A DNA stretch of 58,942 nt from NCBI GenBank assembly GCA_016871255.1, contig VFZH01000005.1:1-58942 (forward strand), written 5' to 3'. The position numbers and the translations under genes were made by a program. The notes beneath the pieces were generated by a model. That model searched no databases, had not been told where the DNA came from, and was given only the letters and a program-made list of their open reading frames with translations. The stretch is from Acidimicrobiia bacterium (GTDB taxonomy: Bacteria; Acidobacteriota; Vicinamibacteria; Vicinamibacterales; UBA2999). Positions 4,199 to 58,597 of the stretch are shown here, piece after piece (position 1 is the stretch's first letter; each line of letters opens with the position of its first letter).

Positions 4199-4385
4199 GC
4201 GCGGACGCGAAATCCCGAAGCCCAGAACCCGAATCCCAGACCAACTCCCAACGCCCGAATCCCAACGGGGCCAGTGTGCGCCTGCCGACTCCTTGGAGGT
4301 CGGGGCATTGGGATGTGGGATGCGGGACTTGACTTGGGATGTCGGATGCGGAGTGTGGGATTTGGACCCTCCCGTGCGTCCGCGC
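4199..4385. repeat. Family-B palindromic element: (AATCCCR)n arm, central hairpin, (YGGGATT)n arm, with 10-bp terminal inverted repeats
   Basis: GCGCGGACGC at 4199-4208 is the reverse complement of GCGTCCGCGC at 4376-4385. The left arm has 7 CCC tracts (4209-4266). The right arm has 5 GGG tracts (4306-4355). Confidence 0.85.
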
Positions 4386-8314: not shown

Positions 8315-10219
8315 TCAGTCCGGAGCGCCGGCCGGCTGCGGGGCGGCAAGGTCGCCCCTGCCATCCAGCGTGCGTTCCAGCTCGCCCACCAGCGCGTCCA
8401 GCTCGGCGACGACGGCGCTCACCGTGTCCGGCCGCGTCAGGTCCACGCCAGCCTTCGCGAGCAGCCGGATGGGGTAGTCGCTCCCGCCCGCGCTCAGCAG
8501 GTCGAGGTAGCGCCGCACCGCCCCGGCCCGCTGGCCCTCGTTCGACGACCGGAGGTCCCGCATCAGCCAGGCGGTGGACGCGAAGCAGGTCGCGTACTGG
8601 TAGACGTAGTACGGCGTGGCGAAGAAGTGGGGGATCCGCGCCCAGGTCACCCGCGAGATCTCCTCGGCGTCGATCGCATCGCCGTAGTAGGCGTTGAGCA
8701 GCGCCCCGTAGATCGCGTTGAGCGTGTCGGCGGTGACCGGCTGGTCCTGCTCGACGAGGCGATGCGCCTGCAGTTCGCAGTCGGCGAAAAGGACCTGCGT
8801 GAAGAACGTCCCCGCGATGCTGTCGATCGCGTGCTGCAGCAGCACGACGCGCTCCTCCGGGCTGGTGGCGCGGGCCAGCATGAAGTCGAGGAAGAGCGCT
8901 TCGCTCAGCGTGGACGGCACCTCGGCCACGAAGATCTCGTAGGCGGCGTAGCGGAAGGGCTGCGCCCGGTGCGCGAGCAGCGTGTGCATCGAGTGGCCCA
9001 TCTCGTGGGCCAGCGTGAACACGGCGTCGAGCGTCTCGTTGTAGTTGAGCAGCATGTACGGGTGCGCCCCGTACACCGGGGCCGAATACGCGCCGCTCCG
9101 CTTGCCGCCGTGCTCGAAGACGTCGATCCAGCGATCCTCGAAGGCCTGCGTGACGTGGCGCTGGTACTCGCTCCCCAGCGGGGCGGCGGACGCCACCACC
9201 CACTCCAGCACCTCGTCGTAGGCGTACCGGCGATCCACGGCGGCCAGCGGCACGGCCGTGTCGAACAGCTTGTACTCCTGCACCCCGAGCGCGCGTTTCC
9301 GCAGGGCGTGATAGCGCCGGAGCGGCGCCACCCCGTCGCGGGCGACCCCGATCAGGGTCTCCACCACCGACGTGGGGATGTCGTTGGCGTGCAGCGCCGC
9401 CTCCAGCGTGGACCGGTACCCGCGGGCGCGCGCCGTGAACCAGTCGCGCTGGAGCACGCCGTTGTACAGGGTCGCGAACGTGTTCAGCGTGCCGGCGAAC
9501 GTGCCGTGAAACGCCCGGTAGGCCGCCGCCCGGTCCTCCTGGTTGCGGTTCGTCTCCAGCAGGGCCCGGTAGTTGCCGTAGGTCAGCGTGACCGTTTCTC
9601 CTGCCGCCAGCGTGATGGTCGGGTAGGTCACGTCTGCCGTCGTCAACGCGGTGTACGCTTCGTTCGGCACCCCGGCGAAGCGGCCGGCATAAGAGAGCAG
9701 CCGCTCGCCCTGTGCGTCGAGCACGTGCTCCTGCTCGTGGAACAGGCTCTCGATCGCGAACCGGTACACCGCCAGATCCGGATCCGCCTCCATCCAGGCC
9801 TGAATCGTGTCGAGCGGGACGGCCAGCAGCTCCGGGTTGAACCAGGAGGTGGCCTGCGCGTGTTTCGAGAAGAGGATCTGGACGCGCTGGCGCCGGGCGT
9901 TGATGGTGTTGTCGCGCTGGTCCTGGTCGTAGGTGAGCGCGGCGAAGTACCACACGCGGTACATCAGGGCCTCGGCCCGGTCCTGGGCACCCAGGGCCGC
10001 CAGCAGGGCCGCGCCGTCGCGGCCCAGCGTGCCTTCGAACGCGGGCATCGCCGCGATGGCCGTCTCGAGCTCCTGGTAGCACGCCTCCCAGTCGTCCCAG
10101 CCGCGACAGATCGCGGAGAGATCCCAGGTGTAGCGCTCGGGAATGGCAGACCGCAGGGTCTCGGCGCCGGCCCGGGGCCGAAATATTGACGATTGGAGAT
10201 TGGTGATTGAGGATTTCAT
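8315..10219 (-). CDS. pepF: Oligoendopeptidase F (M3B family)
   Basis: HEMGH zinc motif and length are typical. IPERYTWDLS near the N-terminus is typical of PepF. The only in-frame ATG is at 10219, inside a family-A array. Confidence 0.9.
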   Translation of the reverse strand: MKSSITNLQSSIFRPRAGAETLRSAIPERYTWDLSAICRGWDDWEACYQELETAIAAMPAFEGTLGRDGAALLAALGAQDRAEALMYRVWYFAALTYDQDQRDNTINARRQRVQILFSKHAQATSWFNPELLAVPLDTIQAWMEADPDLAVYRFAIESLFHEQEHVLDAQGERLLSYAGRFAGVPNEAYTALTTADVTYPTITLAAGETVTLTYGNYRALLETNRNQEDRAAAYRAFHGTFAGTLNTFATLYNGVLQRDWFTARARGYRSTLEAALHANDIPTSVVETLIGVARDGVAPLRRYHALRKRALGVQEYKLFDTAVPLAAVDRRYAYDEVLEWVVASAAPLGSEYQRHVTQAFEDRWIDVFEHGGKRSGAYSAPVYGAHPYMLLNYNETLDAVFTLAHEMGHSMHTLLAHRAQPFRYAAYEIFVAEVPSTLSEALFLDFMLARATSPEERVVLLQHAIDSIAGTFFTQVLFADCELQAHRLVEQDQPVTADTLNAIYGALLNAYYGDAIDAEEISRVTWARIPHFFATPYYVYQYATCFASTAWLMRDLRSSNEGQRAGAVRRYLDLLSAGGSDYPIRLLAKAGVDLTRPDTVSAVVAELDALVGELERTLDGRGDLAAPQPAGAPD

Positions 10220-10250
10220 TGACGATTGGCGATTGGCGATTGGCGATCGG
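10185..10250 (-). repeat. Family-A array (CAATCNC on the minus strand) spanning the pepF start codon
   Basis: Plus strand reads attgacgattggagattggtgattgaggatttcattgacgattggcgattggcgattggcgatcgg. Confidence 0.9.
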
Positions 10251-10269
10251 CGACCCGCAGCGTGATCCT

Positions 10270-10700: not shown

Positions 10701-10796
10701 TATTGGTGATCTGTGATTGGCGATTGGTGATTGCATTGGCGATTGGCGATTGGCGATTGGTGATTGCATTGACGATTGGTGATTGGCGATTGGGGG
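10701..10796 (-). repeat. Family-A array with a 33-nt higher-order period, in the divergent thioesterase/speA promoter gap
   Basis: GATTGGCGATTGGTGATTGCATTG occurs at 10715-10738 and again at 10748-10771. About 13 units of ATTGGYG/ATTGC. Confidence 0.9.
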
Positions 10797-18835: not shown

Positions 18836-20272
18836 ATGTCCGACGCGTTCCCCACCACCCCCGCGGAGTTCTTCACGTACGCGAAGAAGCACGGCGCCGA
18901 AATGCTGGACCTGAAGTTCGTGGACCTGCTCGGCACCTGGCAGCACTGTTCGTACCCGCTCGACACGCTCGACGAGGGCACGTTCGAGGAAGGTCTCGGC
19001 TTCGACGGCTCGTCGATCCGTGGATGGAAGGGCATCCACGAATCCGACATGATGGCGGTCCCCGTGGCCACCACCGGCCGCATCGATCCGTTCTTCGCGA
19101 AGCCGACGATCAGCGTGATCGCGAACATCGTGGACCCGGTCACGCGGCAGGACTTCACGCGCGACCCACGCCACGTCGCCCGGAAGGCCGAGGCCTACCT
19201 GAAGGAGACCGGCATCGCGGACACCTGCTACATCGGGCCGGAGCCGGAGTTCTTCATCTTCGACGAGGTCCGGTACGAGCAGAACCAGCACACCGGCTTC
19301 TACCAGATCGACTCGGTGGAGGGCGCCTGGAACACGGCCCGGATCGAGGAGCCGAACCTGGGCTACAAGCCGAGCTTCAAGGGCGGCTACTTCCCGGTGA
19401 GCCCGTCGGACACCTACCACGACCTGCGCGGCGAGATGGTCGAGGAGATGCGCCGGATCGGCATCGTCGTCGAAGCGCACCACCACGAGGTCGCCACCGC
19501 GGGACAGTCGGAAATCGACATGCAGTTCCAGTCGCTGCTGACGATGGCCGATCAGTTCATGTGGTACAAGTACATCTGCAAGAACGTCGCGAGGCGTCAC
19601 GGCAAGACCGTGACGTTCATGCCGAAGCCGATCTTCGAGGACAACGGCAGCGGCATGCACACGCACACCTCGCTCTGGAAGGGCGGCACGCCGCTCTTCG
19701 CCGGCAACGGCTACGCCGACCTGTCCGACATCGGGCGCTGGGCGGCCGGAGGGCTGCTCCGGCACGCGCCCGCGATCCTGGCCTTCGCCGCTCCGACCAC
19801 GAACTCGTACCGCCGGCTGGTCCCCGGTTTCGAGGCCCCCGTCAACCTGGCGATGTCGGCGCGGAACCGCTCGGCGTCGATCCGGATTCCGATGTACTCG
19901 AAGAGCCCGAAGGCCAAGCGGCTCGAGTTCCGCTGCCCGGACCCGACCTGCAACGGCTACCTGGCGTGGCCGGCCATGCTCATGGCGATGATCGATGGGA
20001 TCCAGAACAGGCTCGATCCCGGCGCGCCGCTCGATCGCGACATCTACGAGATGACCGGCGCCGAGATGAAGGAGATGGGCATCCGGACGACGCCGGGATC
20101 GCTGGGGGAGGCGGTGGACGCGCTGGAGCGGGACCACGCGTTCCTGCTCGATGGTGACGTCTTCACCGAGGACCTGGTCCAGACCTGGATCGACTGGAAG
20201 CGCAGCCGCGAGCTCGACCCGATCCGCCTGCGCCCGCACCCCTACGAGTTCCAGCTCTACTACGACTCGTAG
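18836..20272 (+). CDS. glnA: Glutamine synthetase type I
   Basis: Full-length GSI pattern: [42 protein letters not shown]. Strong SD GAGGAGG lies 6 nt upstream of the ATG. Confidence 0.95.
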
Positions 20273-22533: not shown

Positions 22534-23531
22534 TGAAGCACGCCTCCGCCTTCTTCCGGCTGCTCGGCGATCCGACACGGCTCCGTCTGCTGCGGGTACT
22601 GGCCAGGGACCGCTTCAACGTCAGCGAGCTGACGGGCATCCTGGACCTGGCGCAGTCGGGGGTGTCCCGTCACCTGGGGCTGCTGAAAGAGGCCGGGCTG
22701 GTCGCGGAGGAGCGAGCCGGAGGCCACGCGTACTACCGCCTGGCCACGCCGGACGCGAACGGCCACGGCGCGGTCCGGCCGCTGCTCGAGGCCGAGTTCG
22801 GCGCCGCAGCGAACGACGGCGCGGTGCGCGCCGACGAGGCGCGGCTGCAGGAGGTCCTGCGGGTCCGCAAGGAGAACTTCGAGTCGCACGGCGAGGGCCG
22901 GCAGCTCGTGCCCGGCCGGAGCTGGGCGGCCTGGTCGCGCGCGCTCGGGCACCTGCTGCCGGCGCTCGACGTGGCCGATGTCGGGTGCGGCGAGGGGTAC
23001 CTGACCCTGGAGACCGCCCGCTGGGCGAAGGGCGTCGTTGGCATCGATCGCTCATCCGGCGTGCTGGCGCGCGCACGGGCGCTGGCCGCGCGGCGGCGGG
23101 TCTCGAACGTGCGGTGGAAGAAGGGAGACCTCGCGCATCTGCCGCTGCCGGATGCCGGCGTGGACGTGGTGCTGCTGTCGCAGGCGCTGCACCATGCGGC
23201 CCATCCGGCCCTCGCACTGGGCGAAGCCGCCCGCGTCCTCAGACCGGGCGGCCGCGTGCTGATCCTGGACCTGCGCCGGCACGCGGAAGGCTGGGTGCGC
23301 GACCGGCTCGGGGATCGGCGTCTGGGCTTCTCCGAACAGGAGCTCGTGGACCTCCTCGGCGAGGCGGGATTCGAGCGGCCCCGCATCACCACGGGGGCGC
23401 GCCACGCGGGCGACCCGTTTGTCGTCGTGATCGCCTCTGGCGTCAAGTCCCAGGTCCCGAATCCCGGATCCCAAGCCAAATCCCAACGCCCAGGTCCCAA
23501 AGGGCAGGCTCGGCTCCGCCGCAGGGCCTGA
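22524..23531 (+). CDS. ArsR-family HTH fused to a SAM-dependent methyltransferase-like domain (SahR-like regulator)
   Basis: N-terminus FFRLLGDPTRLRLLRVLARDRFNVSELTGILDLAQSGVSRHLGLLKEAGLV is an ArsR wHTH. The C-terminal part has VADVGCGEGYL (motif I) and VLRPGGRVLILD. It lies immediately upstream of metH. Alternative start ATG at 22533. Confidence 0.8.
   Translation: MDIMKHASAFFRLLGDPTRLRLLRVLARDRFNVSELTGILDLAQSGVSRHLGLLKEAGLVAEERAGGHAYYRLATPDANGHGAVRPLLEAEFGAAANDGAVRADEARLQEVLRVRKENFESHGEGRQLVPGRSWAAWSRALGHLLPALDVADVGCGEGYLTLETARWAKGVVGIDRSSGVLARARALAARRRVSNVRWKKGDLAHLPLPDAGVDVVLLSQALHHAAHPALALGEAARVLRPGGRVLILDLRRHAEGWVRDRLGDRRLGFSEQELVDLLGEAGFERPRITTGARHAGDPFVVVIASGVKSQVPNPGSQAKSQRPGPKGQARLRRRA
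23445..23503 (+). repeat. Family-B array (8 CCC tracts) inside the 3' end of the SahR-like ORF
   Basis: aagtcccaggtcccgaatcccggatcccaagccaaatcccaacgcccaggtcccaaaggg. Confidence 0.9.
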
Positions 23532-23537
23532 GCACCC

Positions 23538-23612
23538 CTCACCAGTCGCCAATCGTCAATCGTCAATCATCAATCGCCAATGCAATCGTCAATCCCCAAT
23601 CCCCAATCCCCA
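23538..23612 (+). repeat. Family-A array (CAATC orientation) with a CTCACCAGTCGCC head, ending at the metH ATG
   Basis: ctcaccagtcgccaatcgtcaatcgtcaatcatcaatcgccaatgcaatcgtcaatccccaatccccaatcccca, followed by ATG. Confidence 0.9.
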
Positions 23613-27311
<3,699 letters not shown>

Positions 27312-38909: not shown

Positions 38910-39017
38910 GTGGAAGAGTGGAAGAGTGGAAAAGTGGAAAAGTGGAAGAGTGGAAAAGTGGAAAAGTGAAGTCGGAAGGGGGAAGTGAGAAGTTCGAAGT
39001 AAGTGGGAAGTGGGGAG
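38910..39017 (+). repeat. Family-C array: 7 tandem GTGGAARA octamers followed by a degenerate purine-rich tail
   Basis: 38910-38965 is (GTGGAAGA/GTGGAAAA)x7. The plus strand has no C from 38910 to 38972. It lies between convergent genes. Confidence 0.9.
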
Positions 39018-39659: not shown

Positions 39660-40652
39660 CTACACGCGGGGCGCCAGGTCGATCCCCATCTCGGGATGAG
39701 GCGTGTACAGCTCCTCGAGGAACCGCACCTCCTCCGCCTCGAGCGTCAGGTCGATGGCCCCGACCGCCGTATCCAGGTTCTCCGGCTTCGTCGTGCCCAG
39801 GATGGGCGCCGTCACCCCCTTGGCGTACAGCCACGCCAGGGCAACCTGCGCGGGCGGCACACCCCGGCGCTCGGCCACGGTTCTGCAGCGCTCTGCGATC
39901 GCGAAGTCCCCGTCGGCCGTGTACAGGCGATGCGCCAGCTTGTCCGTCTTCGCCCTCAGGGTGGCAGAGGCGCCATCCCGCGTTCGCGTGCCCACCAGCA
40001 CGCCACGCGCGAGCGGGCTCCACGGGATGAGCCCGATCCCTTCCTTCCGGCAGAGCGGGATCATCTCGCGCTCCTCTTCCCGGTACACCAGGTTGTAGTG
40101 GTTCTGCATCGAGATGAACCGCGACCAGCCGCGGCTGTCGGCCAGCGCCAGCGCCTGGGCGAACTCCCACGCCCAGCAGCTCGAGGCGCCGATGTAGCGC
40201 GCCTTGCCGGCGCGGACGATGTCGTCGAGCGCCCGCAGCGTTTCGTCGATCGGCGTGGCCGGATCCCACCGGTGAACCTGGTACAGGTCGACGTAATCAG
40301 TGCCCAGCCGCCGGAGGGAGGCATCAATGGCGTCGAAGAGGTGCTTGCGGGACAGTCCGCGATCGTTCGGACCGGTTCCGGTCGGGTAGAACGCCTTGGT
40401 CGCGATCACCACCTGATCGCGGCGGCCGAAGTCGCCGAGAGCCCGGCCGACAACCTCCTCGCTGGCGCCCGCCGAATACATGTCGGCCGTGTCGAAGAAG
40501 TTGATGCCGAGGTCGAGCGCGCGCCGGATGATCGCGCGGCTGGGCTCCTCGTCGAGGGCCCACTCACGCCACGTCGACGTGCCCAGGCCCATGCACCCGA
40601 GGCAGATGCGCGAGACCTTCAGGCCGCTTCGACCGAGAGCGATGTAGTGCAT
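39660..40652 (-). CDS. Aldo/keto reductase
   Basis: MHYIALGRSGLKVSRICLGCMGLG, INFFDTADMYSAGASEEVVGRAL and DLYQVHRWD. ATG 40652 by homology. An in-frame ATG 33 nt upstream (40685) lies in the repeat. Confidence 0.9.
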   Translation of the reverse strand: MHYIALGRSGLKVSRICLGCMGLGTSTWREWALDEEPSRAIIRRALDLGINFFDTADMYSAGASEEVVGRALGDFGRRDQVVIATKAFYPTGTGPNDRGLSRKHLFDAIDASLRRLGTDYVDLYQVHRWDPATPIDETLRALDDIVRAGKARYIGASSCWAWEFAQALALADSRGWSRFISMQNHYNLVYREEEREMIPLCRKEGIGLIPWSPLARGVLVGTRTRDGASATLRAKTDKLAHRLYTADGDFAIAERCRTVAERRGVPPAQVALAWLYAKGVTAPILGTTKPENLDTAVGAIDLTLEAEEVRFLEELYTPHPEMGIDLAPRV

Positions 40653-40778
40653 TGAGGATTGGTGATTGGGGATTGACGATTTCATTGGCGATTGGTCGAT
40701 TGGCCAATTAGCCAATTAGCCGATTGGCCAATCTAGCCGATTGGTCGACTGGTCGATTGGCCAATTGGTCCATTGGCG
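40651..40778 (-). repeat. Family-A array (CAATC on the minus strand) ending at the aldo/keto reductase ATG
   Basis: The plus strand shows GATTGG-type units and three TTGGCCAA palindromes. Confidence 0.9.
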
Positions 40779-40782
40779 GGCG

Positions 40783-40872
40783 CTCTCAAGTCGTCAATCG
40801 CCATCAATCGTCAATCGTCAATCCTCAATCGACCAATACAATCATCAATCATCAATCCGCAATCATCAATCT
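40783..40872 (+). repeat. Family-A array (CAATC on the plus strand), head-to-head with the 40651-40778 array
   Basis: Head CTCTCAAGTCGTCA, then caatcgccatcaatcgtcaatcgtcaatcctcaatcgaccaatacaatcatcaatcatcaatccgcaatcatcaatc. Confidence 0.9.
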
Positions 40873-40879
40873 TCAGGGC

Positions 40880-41425
40880 TCAGATCGCGATCTCCCTGAT
40901 CGGCCCTGTTCCATCCCACCCGGCCGCGGCGTCGTGGATCATCGTCCCGAGCCCCGAGAACTGCGGGTCGGCCACGTCCGCGATCTCGAACTGGAAGCCG
41001 CCCGGACCGTCGTCGGTGGCGAAGAACGCGAACCTCGGCCCGCCGTTGGCGATCCACCCTTCATGCGCCAGCCGCACGCCGCCGCCGCGCAGCCGGGCCA
41101 CTTCCGCGTCGTAGCCGGGGCGATCGACCCAGGCGGCCACGTGCTGCAGCCCGTCGCCCGACGCGCGCAGCCGATCCAGGAACCCGCTGGGGTTGCGATC
41201 GGCCTGGTGGATCAGCTCGACCTGCAGATCGCCCGAAGCGGAGATCGCCAGCGTGAGGTTCGGGGGCGGCGACGGCTGCCCCTGGTACCAGAACTGCCCG
41301 ATCGGCAGGTTCTTCACGAGGAAGAACGGCCCGATCCCCAGGCGTTGGGTCCAGTACGCCAGGGCACGATCCAGATCCGAGACGACGAACCCGATCTGAC
41401 GAGTCGCTCCAAACAGACGGCTCAC
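40880..41425 (-). CDS. VOC/glyoxalase-family protein
   Basis: GTG at 41425 is preceded by GGAGAGGAGG with a 5-nt spacer. IGFVVSDLDRALAYWTQRLGIGPFF and LQHVAAWV are typical of VOC proteins. Confidence 0.75.
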   Translation of the reverse strand: MSRLFGATRQIGFVVSDLDRALAYWTQRLGIGPFFLVKNLPIGQFWYQGQPSPPPNLTLAISASGDLQVELIHQADRNPSGFLDRLRASGDGLQHVAAWVDRPGYDAEVARLRGGGVRLAHEGWIANGGPRFAFFATDDGPGGFQFEIADVADPQFSGLGTMIHDAAAGWDGTGPIREIAI

Positions 41426-43025: not shown

Positions 43026-43040
43026 GCGGCGTCAGCGCTG

Positions 43041-43098
43041 GTGATTGACCATTGGCGATTGCCTTGACGATTGGCGATTGGGGATTTGGCGATTGACC
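43041..43098 (-). repeat. Family-A array (GATTG on the plus strand) overlapping the aldolase start
   Basis: gtgattgaccattggcgattgccttgacgattggcgattggggatttggcgattgacc. Confidence 0.85.
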
Positions 43099-44820: not shown

Positions 44821-44888
44821 GCGGACTCGAAATCCCAAAGCCCAAATCCCGAATCCCAAGCCCAATCCCAGGACCCAAATCCCAAAGT
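44821..44888 (+). repeat. Family-B array with a conserved head, in a divergent promoter gap
   Basis: GCGGACTCGAAATCCC head (15/16 identical to 4201-4216). There are 8 CCC tracts separated by 3-4 nt. Confidence 0.9.
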
Positions 44889-47681: not shown

Positions 47682-47759
47682 CGATTGGTGATTGAGGATT
47701 GATGATTGGGGATTGATTGAAAATTGAAAATTGAGGATTGAGGATTGAGGATTGAGGAT
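47682..47759 (-). repeat. Family-A array starting immediately after the ALDH stop codon
   Basis: cgattggtgattgaggattgatgattggggattgattgaaaattgaaaattgaggattgaggattgaggattgaggat. Confidence 0.9.
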
Positions 47760-47802
47760 GGGTAGTTCGTGACTGGGTGCAGCAGAGACGGGAGGTGGAG
47801 TG

Positions 47803-58178: not shown

Positions 58179-58239
58179 ATCAAATCCCAAAGCCCGAAGC
58201 CCAAAGCCCAAGCCAGATCCCAAGGACCAAATCCCAAAG
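58179..58239 (+). repeat. Family-B array in a divergent gap
   Basis: atcaaatcccaaagcccgaagcccaaagcccaagccagatcccaaggaccaaatcccaaagc (6 CCC tracts). Confidence 0.9.
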
Positions 58240-58273
58240 CAGCGCGTCACGCTGCCCTTGTCACGCCGCGCCA

Positions 58274-58346
58274 CTCGCCAGTCCTCAATCCTTCAATCGC
58301 CAATCGCCAACGCATTCCCCAATCGACAATCCTCAATCTCCATTGC
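58274..58346 (+). repeat. Family-A array (CAATC orientation) with a CTCGCCAGTCCTC head
   Basis: ctcgccagtcctcaatccttcaatcgccaatcgccaacgcattccccaatcgacaatcctcaatctccattgcc. Confidence 0.9.
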
Positions 58347-58363
58347 CACGATACACTCCCTCC

Positions 58364-58597
58364 ATGACTCGTGACGAGCGGCAGGAGGTGCTGAAGATCG
58401 TCGACGCCCACACGCGGACGATCGGTGTCTGCGAGGCGTGCGCCAGAACGACGCGGGACCTTGCAGCCGAAGTCGCCCGCGGCAGCCTGCCCCCGCGAGA
58501 CGACCTGAAACGCACTGTCGACGAAGCCGAACGGGTGCTGACCGAGCTGGCGGACGTACGGAAAGAGGTGGAACGGCTGCGGCGATCCCTGAACTGA
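58364..58597 (+). CDS. Small hypothetical coiled-coil protein (77 aa)
   Basis: MTRDERQEVLKIVDAHTRTIGVCEACARTTRDLAAEV...VRKEVERLRRSLN. G/C-rich third positions, followed by a strong hairpin. Confidence 0.5.
   Translation: MTRDERQEVLKIVDAHTRTIGVCEACARTTRDLAAEVARGSLPPRDDLKRTVDEAERVLTELADVRKEVERLRRSLN

Follow-up and report, generated by a model that had tools for sequence, protein, structure and literature searches.

The stretch of DNA analysed here, hereafter the window, comprises 58,942 nucleotides (nt) of contig VFZH01000005.1 (assembly GCA_016871255.1) and belongs to an uncultured Vicinamibacterales-like acidobacterium of lake water with a G + C content of approximately 69% (66-75% within the window). 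Three of its genes, identified by Pfam as those for a cobalamin-dependent methionine synthase (metH), an aldo/keto reductase and an M3 oligoendopeptidase F (pepF), carry a 36-nt string at their starts, located at 23580-23615 on the plus strand and at 40685-40650 and 10219-10184 on the minus strand. An initial annotation, made from the sequence alone, regarded these strings as copies of one conserved ATG-to-ATG module that may donate start codons to genes lacking a Shine-Dalgarno (SD) sequence. The gene identities and the letters of all three strings proved correct, and the string ATGs are in frame with the open reading frames (ORFs) of metH, the reductase gene and pepF. The self-contained module did not hold, as each string is part of a longer tandem array of the degenerate heptanucleotide CAATCNN (23543-23615, 40650-40702 and 10184-10253). 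We consider it probable that the strings are pieces of dispersed CAATCNN simple sequence repeat (SSR) arrays that would have grown by slippage and been tolerated into the starts of ORFs, where they supply ATGs without an SD.

Eight CAATCNN arrays are present in the 59-kb window, and all of them lie in spacers or at gene ends. A pattern of three consecutive units was matched 37 times in the window, compared with no match in 100 shuffles, and Tandem Repeats Finder (TRF) reported period-7 arrays of 7-12 copies with imperfect units (78-81% matches). The arrays and the start codons associated with them are as follows:

10184-10253, minus strand, sense to pepF: CAATCNN array that takes up the 54-nt spacer separating pepF from the thioesterase gene
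10219-10217, minus strand: array ATG of pepF, the sole in-frame ATG, GTG or TTG outside the upstream thioesterase gene, whose stop codon is at 10276-10274
10701-10796, minus strand, sense to the thioesterase gene: CAATCNN array 56 nt upstream of GTG 10659, with 2.4 copies of a 33-nt super-unit
23543-23615, plus strand, sense to metH: CAATCNN array filling the spacer, with two 33-nt super-units, each having a terminal CAATG
23580-23582 and 23613-23615, plus strand: first and second array ATGs of metH; the stop codon of the upstream ArsR-methyltransferase gene is at 23529-23531
40650-40702, minus strand, sense to the reductase gene: CAATCNN array terminating on the reductase start
40685-40683 and 40652-40650, minus strand: first and second array ATGs of the reductase gene, the second being its canonical MHYIALG start
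40703-40777, minus strand: block of 8-nt CCAATYGR-type units between the inverted and sense arrays (TRF periods 8 and 24), forming an inner stem
40805-40875, CAATC on the plus strand and GATTG on the reductase strand: inverted partner array, 5 nt past the glyoxalase stop codon (40880)
43039-43095, minus strand, antisense, GATTG on the plus strand: array between the stop codon of an FAD/BBE oxidase gene (43025) and an HpcH-family gene, overlapping the start of the latter
47683-47761, minus strand, antisense: array directly past a stop codon (47681)
58278-58342, plus strand, sense: CAATCNN array whose end is 23 nt short of ATG 58365

Tandem 7-nt units beyond chance expectation, dispersal as non-coding arrays in the window, and presence and length that vary among relatives place these arrays in the class of heptanucleotide long simple sequence repeats (LSSRs) and short tandemly repeated repetitive (STRR) sequences. 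Further heptamer or octamer families were reported by TRF in the window. A search of the whole window against Rfam 15 gave no match at the gathering score, and predictions of sigma-70 promoters and intrinsic terminators around the three arrays gave nothing above shuffle expectation. The best matches of MetH and PepF show 66-74% identity and come mostly from metagenome-assembled genomes (MAGs) of Vicinamibacterales or Acidobacteriota. The sequencing runs that hold the window are exclusively lake-water DNA runs, and the short form of the reductase protein is present in Joint Genome Institute (JGI) and Logan assemblies of the Lake Tanganyika series.

The absence of an SD at the three genes was upheld: no 4-6-mer resembling an SD is located 20 nt or less from the ATGs at 23580, 23613, 40685, 40652 and 10219. 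Strong AGGAGG-type SD sequences are found at 18836, 41425, 44768, 49648, 55116 and other positions, amounting to approximately one third of the genes in the window. Array-free genes of the window also lack an SD, at 929, 3438, 22524, 39647, 57146 and 58167. The array at 58278-58342 contains no ATG and is accompanied by no SD, and the array at 47683-47761 is followed by a 40-nt spacer with a strong SD (GGGAGGTGGAG) and ATG 47803.

At the metH junction, the gap between the ArsR-methyltransferase gene and metH is 48 nt if counted to the first ATG and 81 nt if counted to the second, and it consists of array. In relatives, the two genes overlap, in TGATG in L139 and in ATGA in L140, and no repeat is present there. 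Comparison with these relatives shows that the array took the place of the ancestral stop/start overlap at this junction. In two further contigs, L141 and L142, the coupled ATG of metH, which overlaps or adjoins the upstream stop codon, is kept, and other repeat units, AACCNTCG octamers in the former (1501-1545) and GAATCCC-like heptamers in the latter (413-470), stand in frame before the conserved RLxxLL helix. As no alternative start is available in either, arrays are translated as N-terminal extensions in some relatives at least. In addition, repeat-like N-termini were found in about 10 of 120 MetH entries. The initial annotation held that homology favors the second ATG of metH, which is not clearly so, since 14-17 residues precede ILVLDGAMG in the homologues, compared with 9 in the short form and 20 in the long form.

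Several other features of this junction were observed. Repeat units of different kinds have settled in the metH junction in separate lineages, L141 and L142 being other acidobacterial contigs. A second repeat family (units GAATCCC, GGATCCC, AAATCCC, AAGCCC and GGTCCC) is found at 23444-23500, as well as at 4214-4267, 44830-44886 and 58181-58240. Its copy at 23444-23500 is embedded in the 3' end of the ArsR-methyltransferase gene and encodes a tail of approximately 16 residues (SQVPNPGSQAKSQRPGPKGQARLRRRA) that is missing from three orthologues. The metH gene was called in two pieces in L140 (1501-4878) and in four in L141 (1501-4695); these splits are likely assembly frameshift errors rather than real.

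In pepF, the array has reached into the gene itself. PepF homologues start with MPxLDTFRPEPG, exactly 19 residues before IPxRYxWDL in 46 of 120 entries, and the protein of the window reads MKSSITNLQSSI-FRPRAG, such that the array-encoded MKSSITNLQSSI stands where MPxLDT was ancestral. This alignment shows that the array overwrote the ancestral ATG of pepF and the five codons following it. The proposal that the element donates start codons stands in part: at pepF the ancestral start was replaced and the array ATG is the only one left, while the orthologues of pepF and metH are without the module. On the basis of the reading frame, pepF would start on an array-borne ATG with a 12-residue array-encoded tag, the predicted peptide being MKSSITNLQSSIFRP. 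The region around this start is partly base-paired in the predicted RNA fold. Another candidate start, GTG 10384 with GGAGG 7 nt upstream, was rejected; it lies inside the thioesterase coding sequence (CDS), is read in a different frame from that gene and would bring in an overlap rich in Arg and Gly.

The two array ATGs upstream of the neighboring thioesterase gene (10769 and 10736) are out of frame with it, and its leader, like that of the gene at 58365, shows weak folding. The array there also supplies the whole of a 25-codon upstream ORF (uORF; 10769-10692, minus strand, MQSPIANRQSPMQSPIANHRSPIPM*) that ends 35 nt before the thioesterase GTG.

The reductase gene provides the third case. 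Its second array ATG gives the canonical MxYxxLG start and was chosen by the JGI gene caller (330 amino acids), and the sequence of this region is the same in L001 and L002. No exact-protein record of the long form was found, and the short form is on record; this reflects the choice of the gene caller and not biology. Here, the array does not stand alone. Together, 40805-40875 and 40650-40777 form a long imperfect hairpin, and the predicted RNA fold of 40630-40885 (minus strand) has an energy of -101.4 kcal/mol (z = -6.7). The initial annotation had proposed that the element provides a G-poor, unstructured leader. For metH this was supported, as its leader contains little G and has almost no predicted structure (-2.6 kcal/mol for 119 nt), but at the reductase gene the array lies within the hairpin, provided that the spacer is transcribed. 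The reductase hairpin thus means that "unstructured leader" is no general description of the arrays. A miniature inverted-repeat transposable element (MITE)-like origin of the inverted arrays was considered and rejected, as the spacers at the reductase gene and at a gyrB gene of the same lake (L135) share no sequence visible by eye.

Such inverted pairs raise the possibility of a role at the level of DNA or RNA stability, in which they would act as cruciforms or hairpins that terminate, insulate or protect 3' ends, in the manner of repetitive extragenic palindromic (REP) sequences or bacterial interspersed mosaic elements (BIMEs), or in which the arrays would be AT-richer sites for promoters or nucleoid proteins. 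The strength of the glyoxalase-reductase hairpin is consistent with this role, as are the antisense arrays found right past stop codons (47683, 40875 and 43039) and the layout [GATTG array - spacer - CAATC array - ATG], which recurs at the L135 gyrB and at many other loci; inverted pairs are also known in Xanthomonas (PMC4692102). However, most arrays are single, among them those at metH, pepF, the thioesterase gene and 58278, neither sigma-70-like promoters nor intrinsic terminators exceed shuffle expectation in or around the arrays, and the sense arrays that end at start codons are left unaccounted for. We therefore regard this role as very unlikely to explain the arrays.

The relation of the array ATGs to the reading frame was examined further. 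The annotated recurrence of CAATG every 33 nt in the 10701-10796 array is correct (TRF period 33, 95% matches), and the two ATGs of one copy are mutually in frame because 33 is divisible by three. A frame relation to the gene built into the element was not found, as the ATGs are in frame in three of five cases in this lineage (p ~ 0.2 against an expectation of one third), and the same pattern would be expected to result from selection against overlapping out-of-frame uORFs. Nor is there a conserved 36-nt cassette, since other copies are out of frame, past stop codons, inside a gene or near no gene. In L135, the terminal CAATG is the start of gyrB, the upstream CAATGAAATC ATG is out of frame and closed by a TAA from a variant unit, and a second copy lies directly past the gyrB stop codon on the opposite strand; in other phyla, a terminal CAATG starts dnaE-like (L103) and czcA-like (L109) genes. 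The copy in L131 has no gene in frame.

A scan for the exact module in a metagenome collection, evidently incomplete as L001 was not returned, gave 16 loci, of which one or two have a gene started by the module. The copy in L132 provides the in-frame start of an rmlA-like gene, a dinB copy (L127) has a GTG start overlapping the array ATG, a nuoK copy (L134) has an out-of-frame ATG two bases later, and another (L138) is followed by an SD and a later ATG. Four or five copies lie past convergent stop codons. Two other loci are of separate interest. In L126 (1308-1344), a block of four CAATCAG units and CAATG lies in frame within a hemY-like (protoporphyrinogen-oxidase-like) ORF (...FRIRNAISNQQSAISNEGAFKSLPGG...), an apparent repeat insertion in a CDS. 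In L124 (892-965), the array ATG opens an 11-codon uORF with an internal GGAGG, the TGA of which overlaps an rpsB-like ATG (cgATGAagg); to judge from this overlap, the arrangement looks like termination-reinitiation.

The 33-nt spacing itself is a property of the lineage. The super-unit consists of four heptamers and CAATG, and every interval between truncated units is exactly four heptamers. The junction AATCNN-CAATG-[A/C]AATCNN was found five times in the window, spread over four arrays, and not at all in about 0.9 Mb of the 120 other genomes listed. The super-unit is a true repeat of higher order and is specific to this lineage. It may have arisen by duplication of a 33-nt block including the start-proximal CAATG, with only frame-neutral duplications being kept.

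Arrays with ATGs inside them and a unit length that is not a multiple of three could also act as phase-variation switches, in which gain or loss of 7 nt would shift the frame of the upstream ATG or the spacing of a promoter, toggling expression or N-terminal isoforms. Array length does differ between the related metagenome contigs L125 and L137, though by a single 12-nt stretch (aatccgatcgcc) and by no 7-nt unit. We consider such switching highly improbable: the genes are housekeeping genes rather than genes for surface or host interaction, an argument also made for the GGGNATC repeats (PMC4692102); the number of units leaves the terminal start codon unaffected; imperfect units (78-81% matches) lower slippage rates; and no length variants are visible, public contigs breaking at the arrays. 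In particular, the public Logan contigs over metH and over pepF and the thioesterase gene end inside the arrays.

A pattern scan with one genome per species yielded at least 120 loci, and CAATCNN arrays were found in at least 120 species of Acidobacteriota, Planctomycetota, Cyanobacteria, Chloroflexota, Bacteroidota, Desulfobacterota, Verrucomicrobiota and other phyla. The counts given in this paragraph are those among the matches listed. Period 7 was represented by 98 arrays, about 20 of them heptamer arrays with other units, and all other periods from 4 to 12 by 9. By an approximate count, 21 of 34 sense arrays and 3 of 26 antisense arrays have an in-frame ATG at -45 to +25 nt relative to their end (Fisher p = 1.4e-4; 7e-4 without the window), and the median distance from array to ATG is 15 nt for sense and 69 nt for antisense arrays. 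An SD is missing in 17 of the 21 sense arrays that adjoin a start. Median G content is 8% on the CAATC strand and 29% for the loci, and stop triplets in any frame were present in 10 of 152 arrays read in sense and in 98 of 152 read in antisense. An antisense array is often followed by a sense array before the gene, which produces the inverted pairs described above.

This distribution bears on whether the arrays form a dedicated post-transcriptional element, in which CAAUCNN leaders would be read in a 7-nt register by a protein of the S1 or cold-shock-domain type, recruiting ribosomes to SD-less starts or occluding them there and uniting the genes in a regulon. A 5-nt core kept with NN free in at least 120 species of many phyla, and its sense orientation next to SD-less starts, would suit such an element. 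Moreover, cold-shock proteins reportedly bind heptamer direct repeats, one per heptamer, and S1, cold-shock proteins (Csp) and CsrA have been proposed for the TAACTGA repeats (PMC4679880). Nevertheless, the downstream genes are unrelated (metH, pepF, reductase, thioesterase, gyrB, dnaE and an efflux pump), many arrays lie past stop codons, in antisense or near no gene, orthologues lack arrays, and the binding protein is only hypothetical. A dedicated element of this kind therefore appears unlikely. A broader version, in which CAAUCNN would be a cross-phylum element for SD-independent initiation or re-initiation, read by an S1 or cold-shock-domain protein, that replaces coupling and mints starts and tags, with the super-unit as a lineage-specific functional module, seems to us distinctly unlikely.

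The interpretation that we favor is that of tolerated SSR arrays. The arrays presumably grow by replication slippage and would accumulate in short spacers between co-directional genes. The CAAT end of the CAATC strand makes an ATG whenever G comes next, and this strand alone barely folds. Being G-poor, mostly stop-free and unfolded, the CAATC strand may be allowed to extend as far as the 5' ends of ORFs and inside them, and the G-rich complement is found mostly past stop codons. Between co-directional cistrons, the arrays would replace tight coupling, and metH and the reductase gene would start on array-borne ATGs without an SD, at either of the two. Initiation would then be SD-independent, occurring de novo on a structure-free leader or through re-initiation by ribosomes of the upstream cistron. 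The in-frame pairs of ATGs would be survivors of selection, with out-of-frame upstream ATGs persisting only if closed by a stop codon before the gene.

Two further mechanisms for initiation at the arrays were discarded. Array-derived -10 boxes (NNCAAT) with leaderless initiation were dropped, as the units GTCAAT, GCCAAT and CCCAAT lack the A at -11. Pairing of CCAAUC with GGUUGG of 16S ribosomal RNA (rRNA) was dropped because that segment belongs to helix 45.

Several points weigh against tolerated SSR arrays as a full account. The use of the array ATGs and an effect on translation are what we infer from sequence, and the gene calls of the census were heuristic (open frame plus G + C content at third codon positions, GC3), which makes its counts approximate. 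The CAATC array of the reductase gene, with both ATGs included, pairs with the GATTG array past the glyoxalase stop codon, which misfits the role of an unstructured leader. The constant 33-nt spacing is not predicted by slippage and frame selection, since 12 or 54 nt would keep the frame too. Finally, that one CAATC core recurs in many phyla could be a sign of a common factor recognizing it and not of neutral tolerance.

Heptamer arrays of this kind and their positional rule are already known. The class of LSSRs and STRRs, which includes the cyanobacterial STRR heptamers that Mazel et al. reportedly described in 1990, shares with the arrays presented here the dominant period of 7 and the sporadic phylogenetic spread. 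For prokaryotic LSSRs, the account given in PMC4679880 of the survey by Mrazek et al. (2007) describes dominance of heptamers, sporadic distribution and a proposed origin by polymerase slippage. In contrast to the arrays of the window, neither replacement of a start codon nor a 33-nt higher-order unit is reported in that account.

A close likeness in position was noted for the GGGAATC/GGGGA(C/T)T repeats that Rehm et al. (2015, PMC4692102) described in Xanthomonas and Nostoc PCC 7120. Their C-rich strand is coding and lies 0-50 bp upstream of ORFs, and their G-rich strand lies within 50 bp past stop codons; inverted pairs occur, most copies are transcribed and their function is unknown (PMC4692102). 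Like these repeats, the CAATCNN arrays are dispersed, intergenic and heptameric, prefer spacers between co-directional ORFs and vary in length among relatives, and the orientation rule is evident both in the map of the window and in the census (21/34 versus 3/26 among the matches listed). In addition, GGGGATT is complementary to the CAATCCC units at 23590-23612. However, only these three units give GGGG on the complement, whereas the Rehm repeats are characterized by a tract of three or four G per unit, with at least four such tracts in succession. As most units of the window (CAATCGC, CGT, CAC and CCT) have no such G3 tract on the complement, the G-quadruplex idea of Rehm et al. (2015) is inapplicable here. 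Furthermore, the arrays show no preference for four units, and the 33-nt super-unit with its truncated CAATG was not described for the Rehm repeats.

The TAACTGA repeats of marine Beggiatoaceae, some Cyanobacteria and Bacteroidetes are located just upstream of SD-less starts, and a role in translation was proposed for them but not tested (MacGregor 2015, PMC4679880). They resemble the CAATCNN arrays in that forward units lie within a few nt of the start, an SD is rare, the place of the ribosome-binding site is overlapped and the downstream genes are unrelated. This likeness is one of position and not of family identity, as the unit sequence differs. Forward TAACTGA units contain stop codons and allow no read-through, whereas CAATCNN is almost stop-free and can become coding; TAACTGA sets are also short, with 2-6 copies, unlike the CAATCNN arrays. 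In Nostoc PCC 7120, the heptamer GAC(C/T)AAT is found upstream of recO and 13 other genes, and reporter deletions pointed to effects on the access of regulators (Pradhan et al. 2022, bioRxiv 10.1101/2022.06.06.494920). In several genes this repeat likewise stands no more than 30 nt from the start, with a non-canonical or distant SD, but its register is CAATGAC rather than CAATCNN.

The initial annotation compared the element with CA-rich enhancers of translation. A CA-repeat enhancer of Escherichia coli (Martin-Farmer and Janssen, 1999), a local absence of structure in SD-independent initiation (Scharff et al., 2011) and 70S scanning re-initiation (Yamamoto et al., 2016) have reportedly been described. 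The metH leader is like such leaders, being G-poor, C/A-rich and unfolded around an SD-less AUG between co-directional cistrons. It differs from them in that those are experimentally defined effects of composition and no repeat family; here the likeness derives from sequence alone, and the reductase copy is predicted to be base-paired.

Taken together, what is new is the occurrence of the degenerate unit CAATCNN in an acidobacterium and the range of phyla over which it is spread, the 33-nt higher-order unit, and the comparative erasure of a coupling junction and of a start codon. For annotation, this means that starts and N-termini beside arrays are unreliable, as gene callers pick either ATG and translate arrays as extensions rich in S, P, N and Q, which was seen in several MetH entries. 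For gene evolution, the window offers a clean natural case of a microsatellite that erased a coupling junction (metH) and a start with N-terminal codons (pepF) while leaving the genes intact, and the comparison with relatives shows a route by which starts without an SD and short tags at the N-terminus can come about. The CAATC core beside SD-less starts in many phyla also raises the question of whether a composition-based or protein-mediated alternative to the SD exists in bacteria.

Start codons may also arise from the opposite strand of an array. The called start of the HpcH/HpaI-family gene, TTG 43086 (JGI; 266 amino acids in L001), lies inside a GATTGNN array, and 43071 is also possible; the predicted fold at this array (43039-43095) has a z of -2.9. 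From this TTG, repeat-derived start codons appear to occur in both array orientations.

As to transcription, words of the CAATCAC/CAATTAC array at the cyanobacterial locus L033 (3430-3505) have a very high summed depth in contigs from RNA sequencing (X25, X32 and X36) and many flanks; the summed depth of array words reaches approximately 9.8e5 in X36, a single-organism transcriptome. Unless DNA carry-over accounts for it, this depth points to wide transcription of such arrays in cyanobacteria. The gene adjacent to the L033 array was not found in the RNA runs holding the array words, which have no bearing on the transcription start site (TSS) of L033.

An unrelated spacer array is located at 38910-39014 of the window, where GTGGAAAA is repeated seven times and followed by seven copies of GAAGTGG (TRF scores 97-111); its sequence has no relation to the CAATC family. 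Finally, three consecutive pseudopilin-like genes (GFTLLE/AFSLLE) at L077 (4544-5760) each follow a CAATCGN array with no obvious ATG between array and motif, and these arrays may, to judge from their position, be part of the leader peptides.

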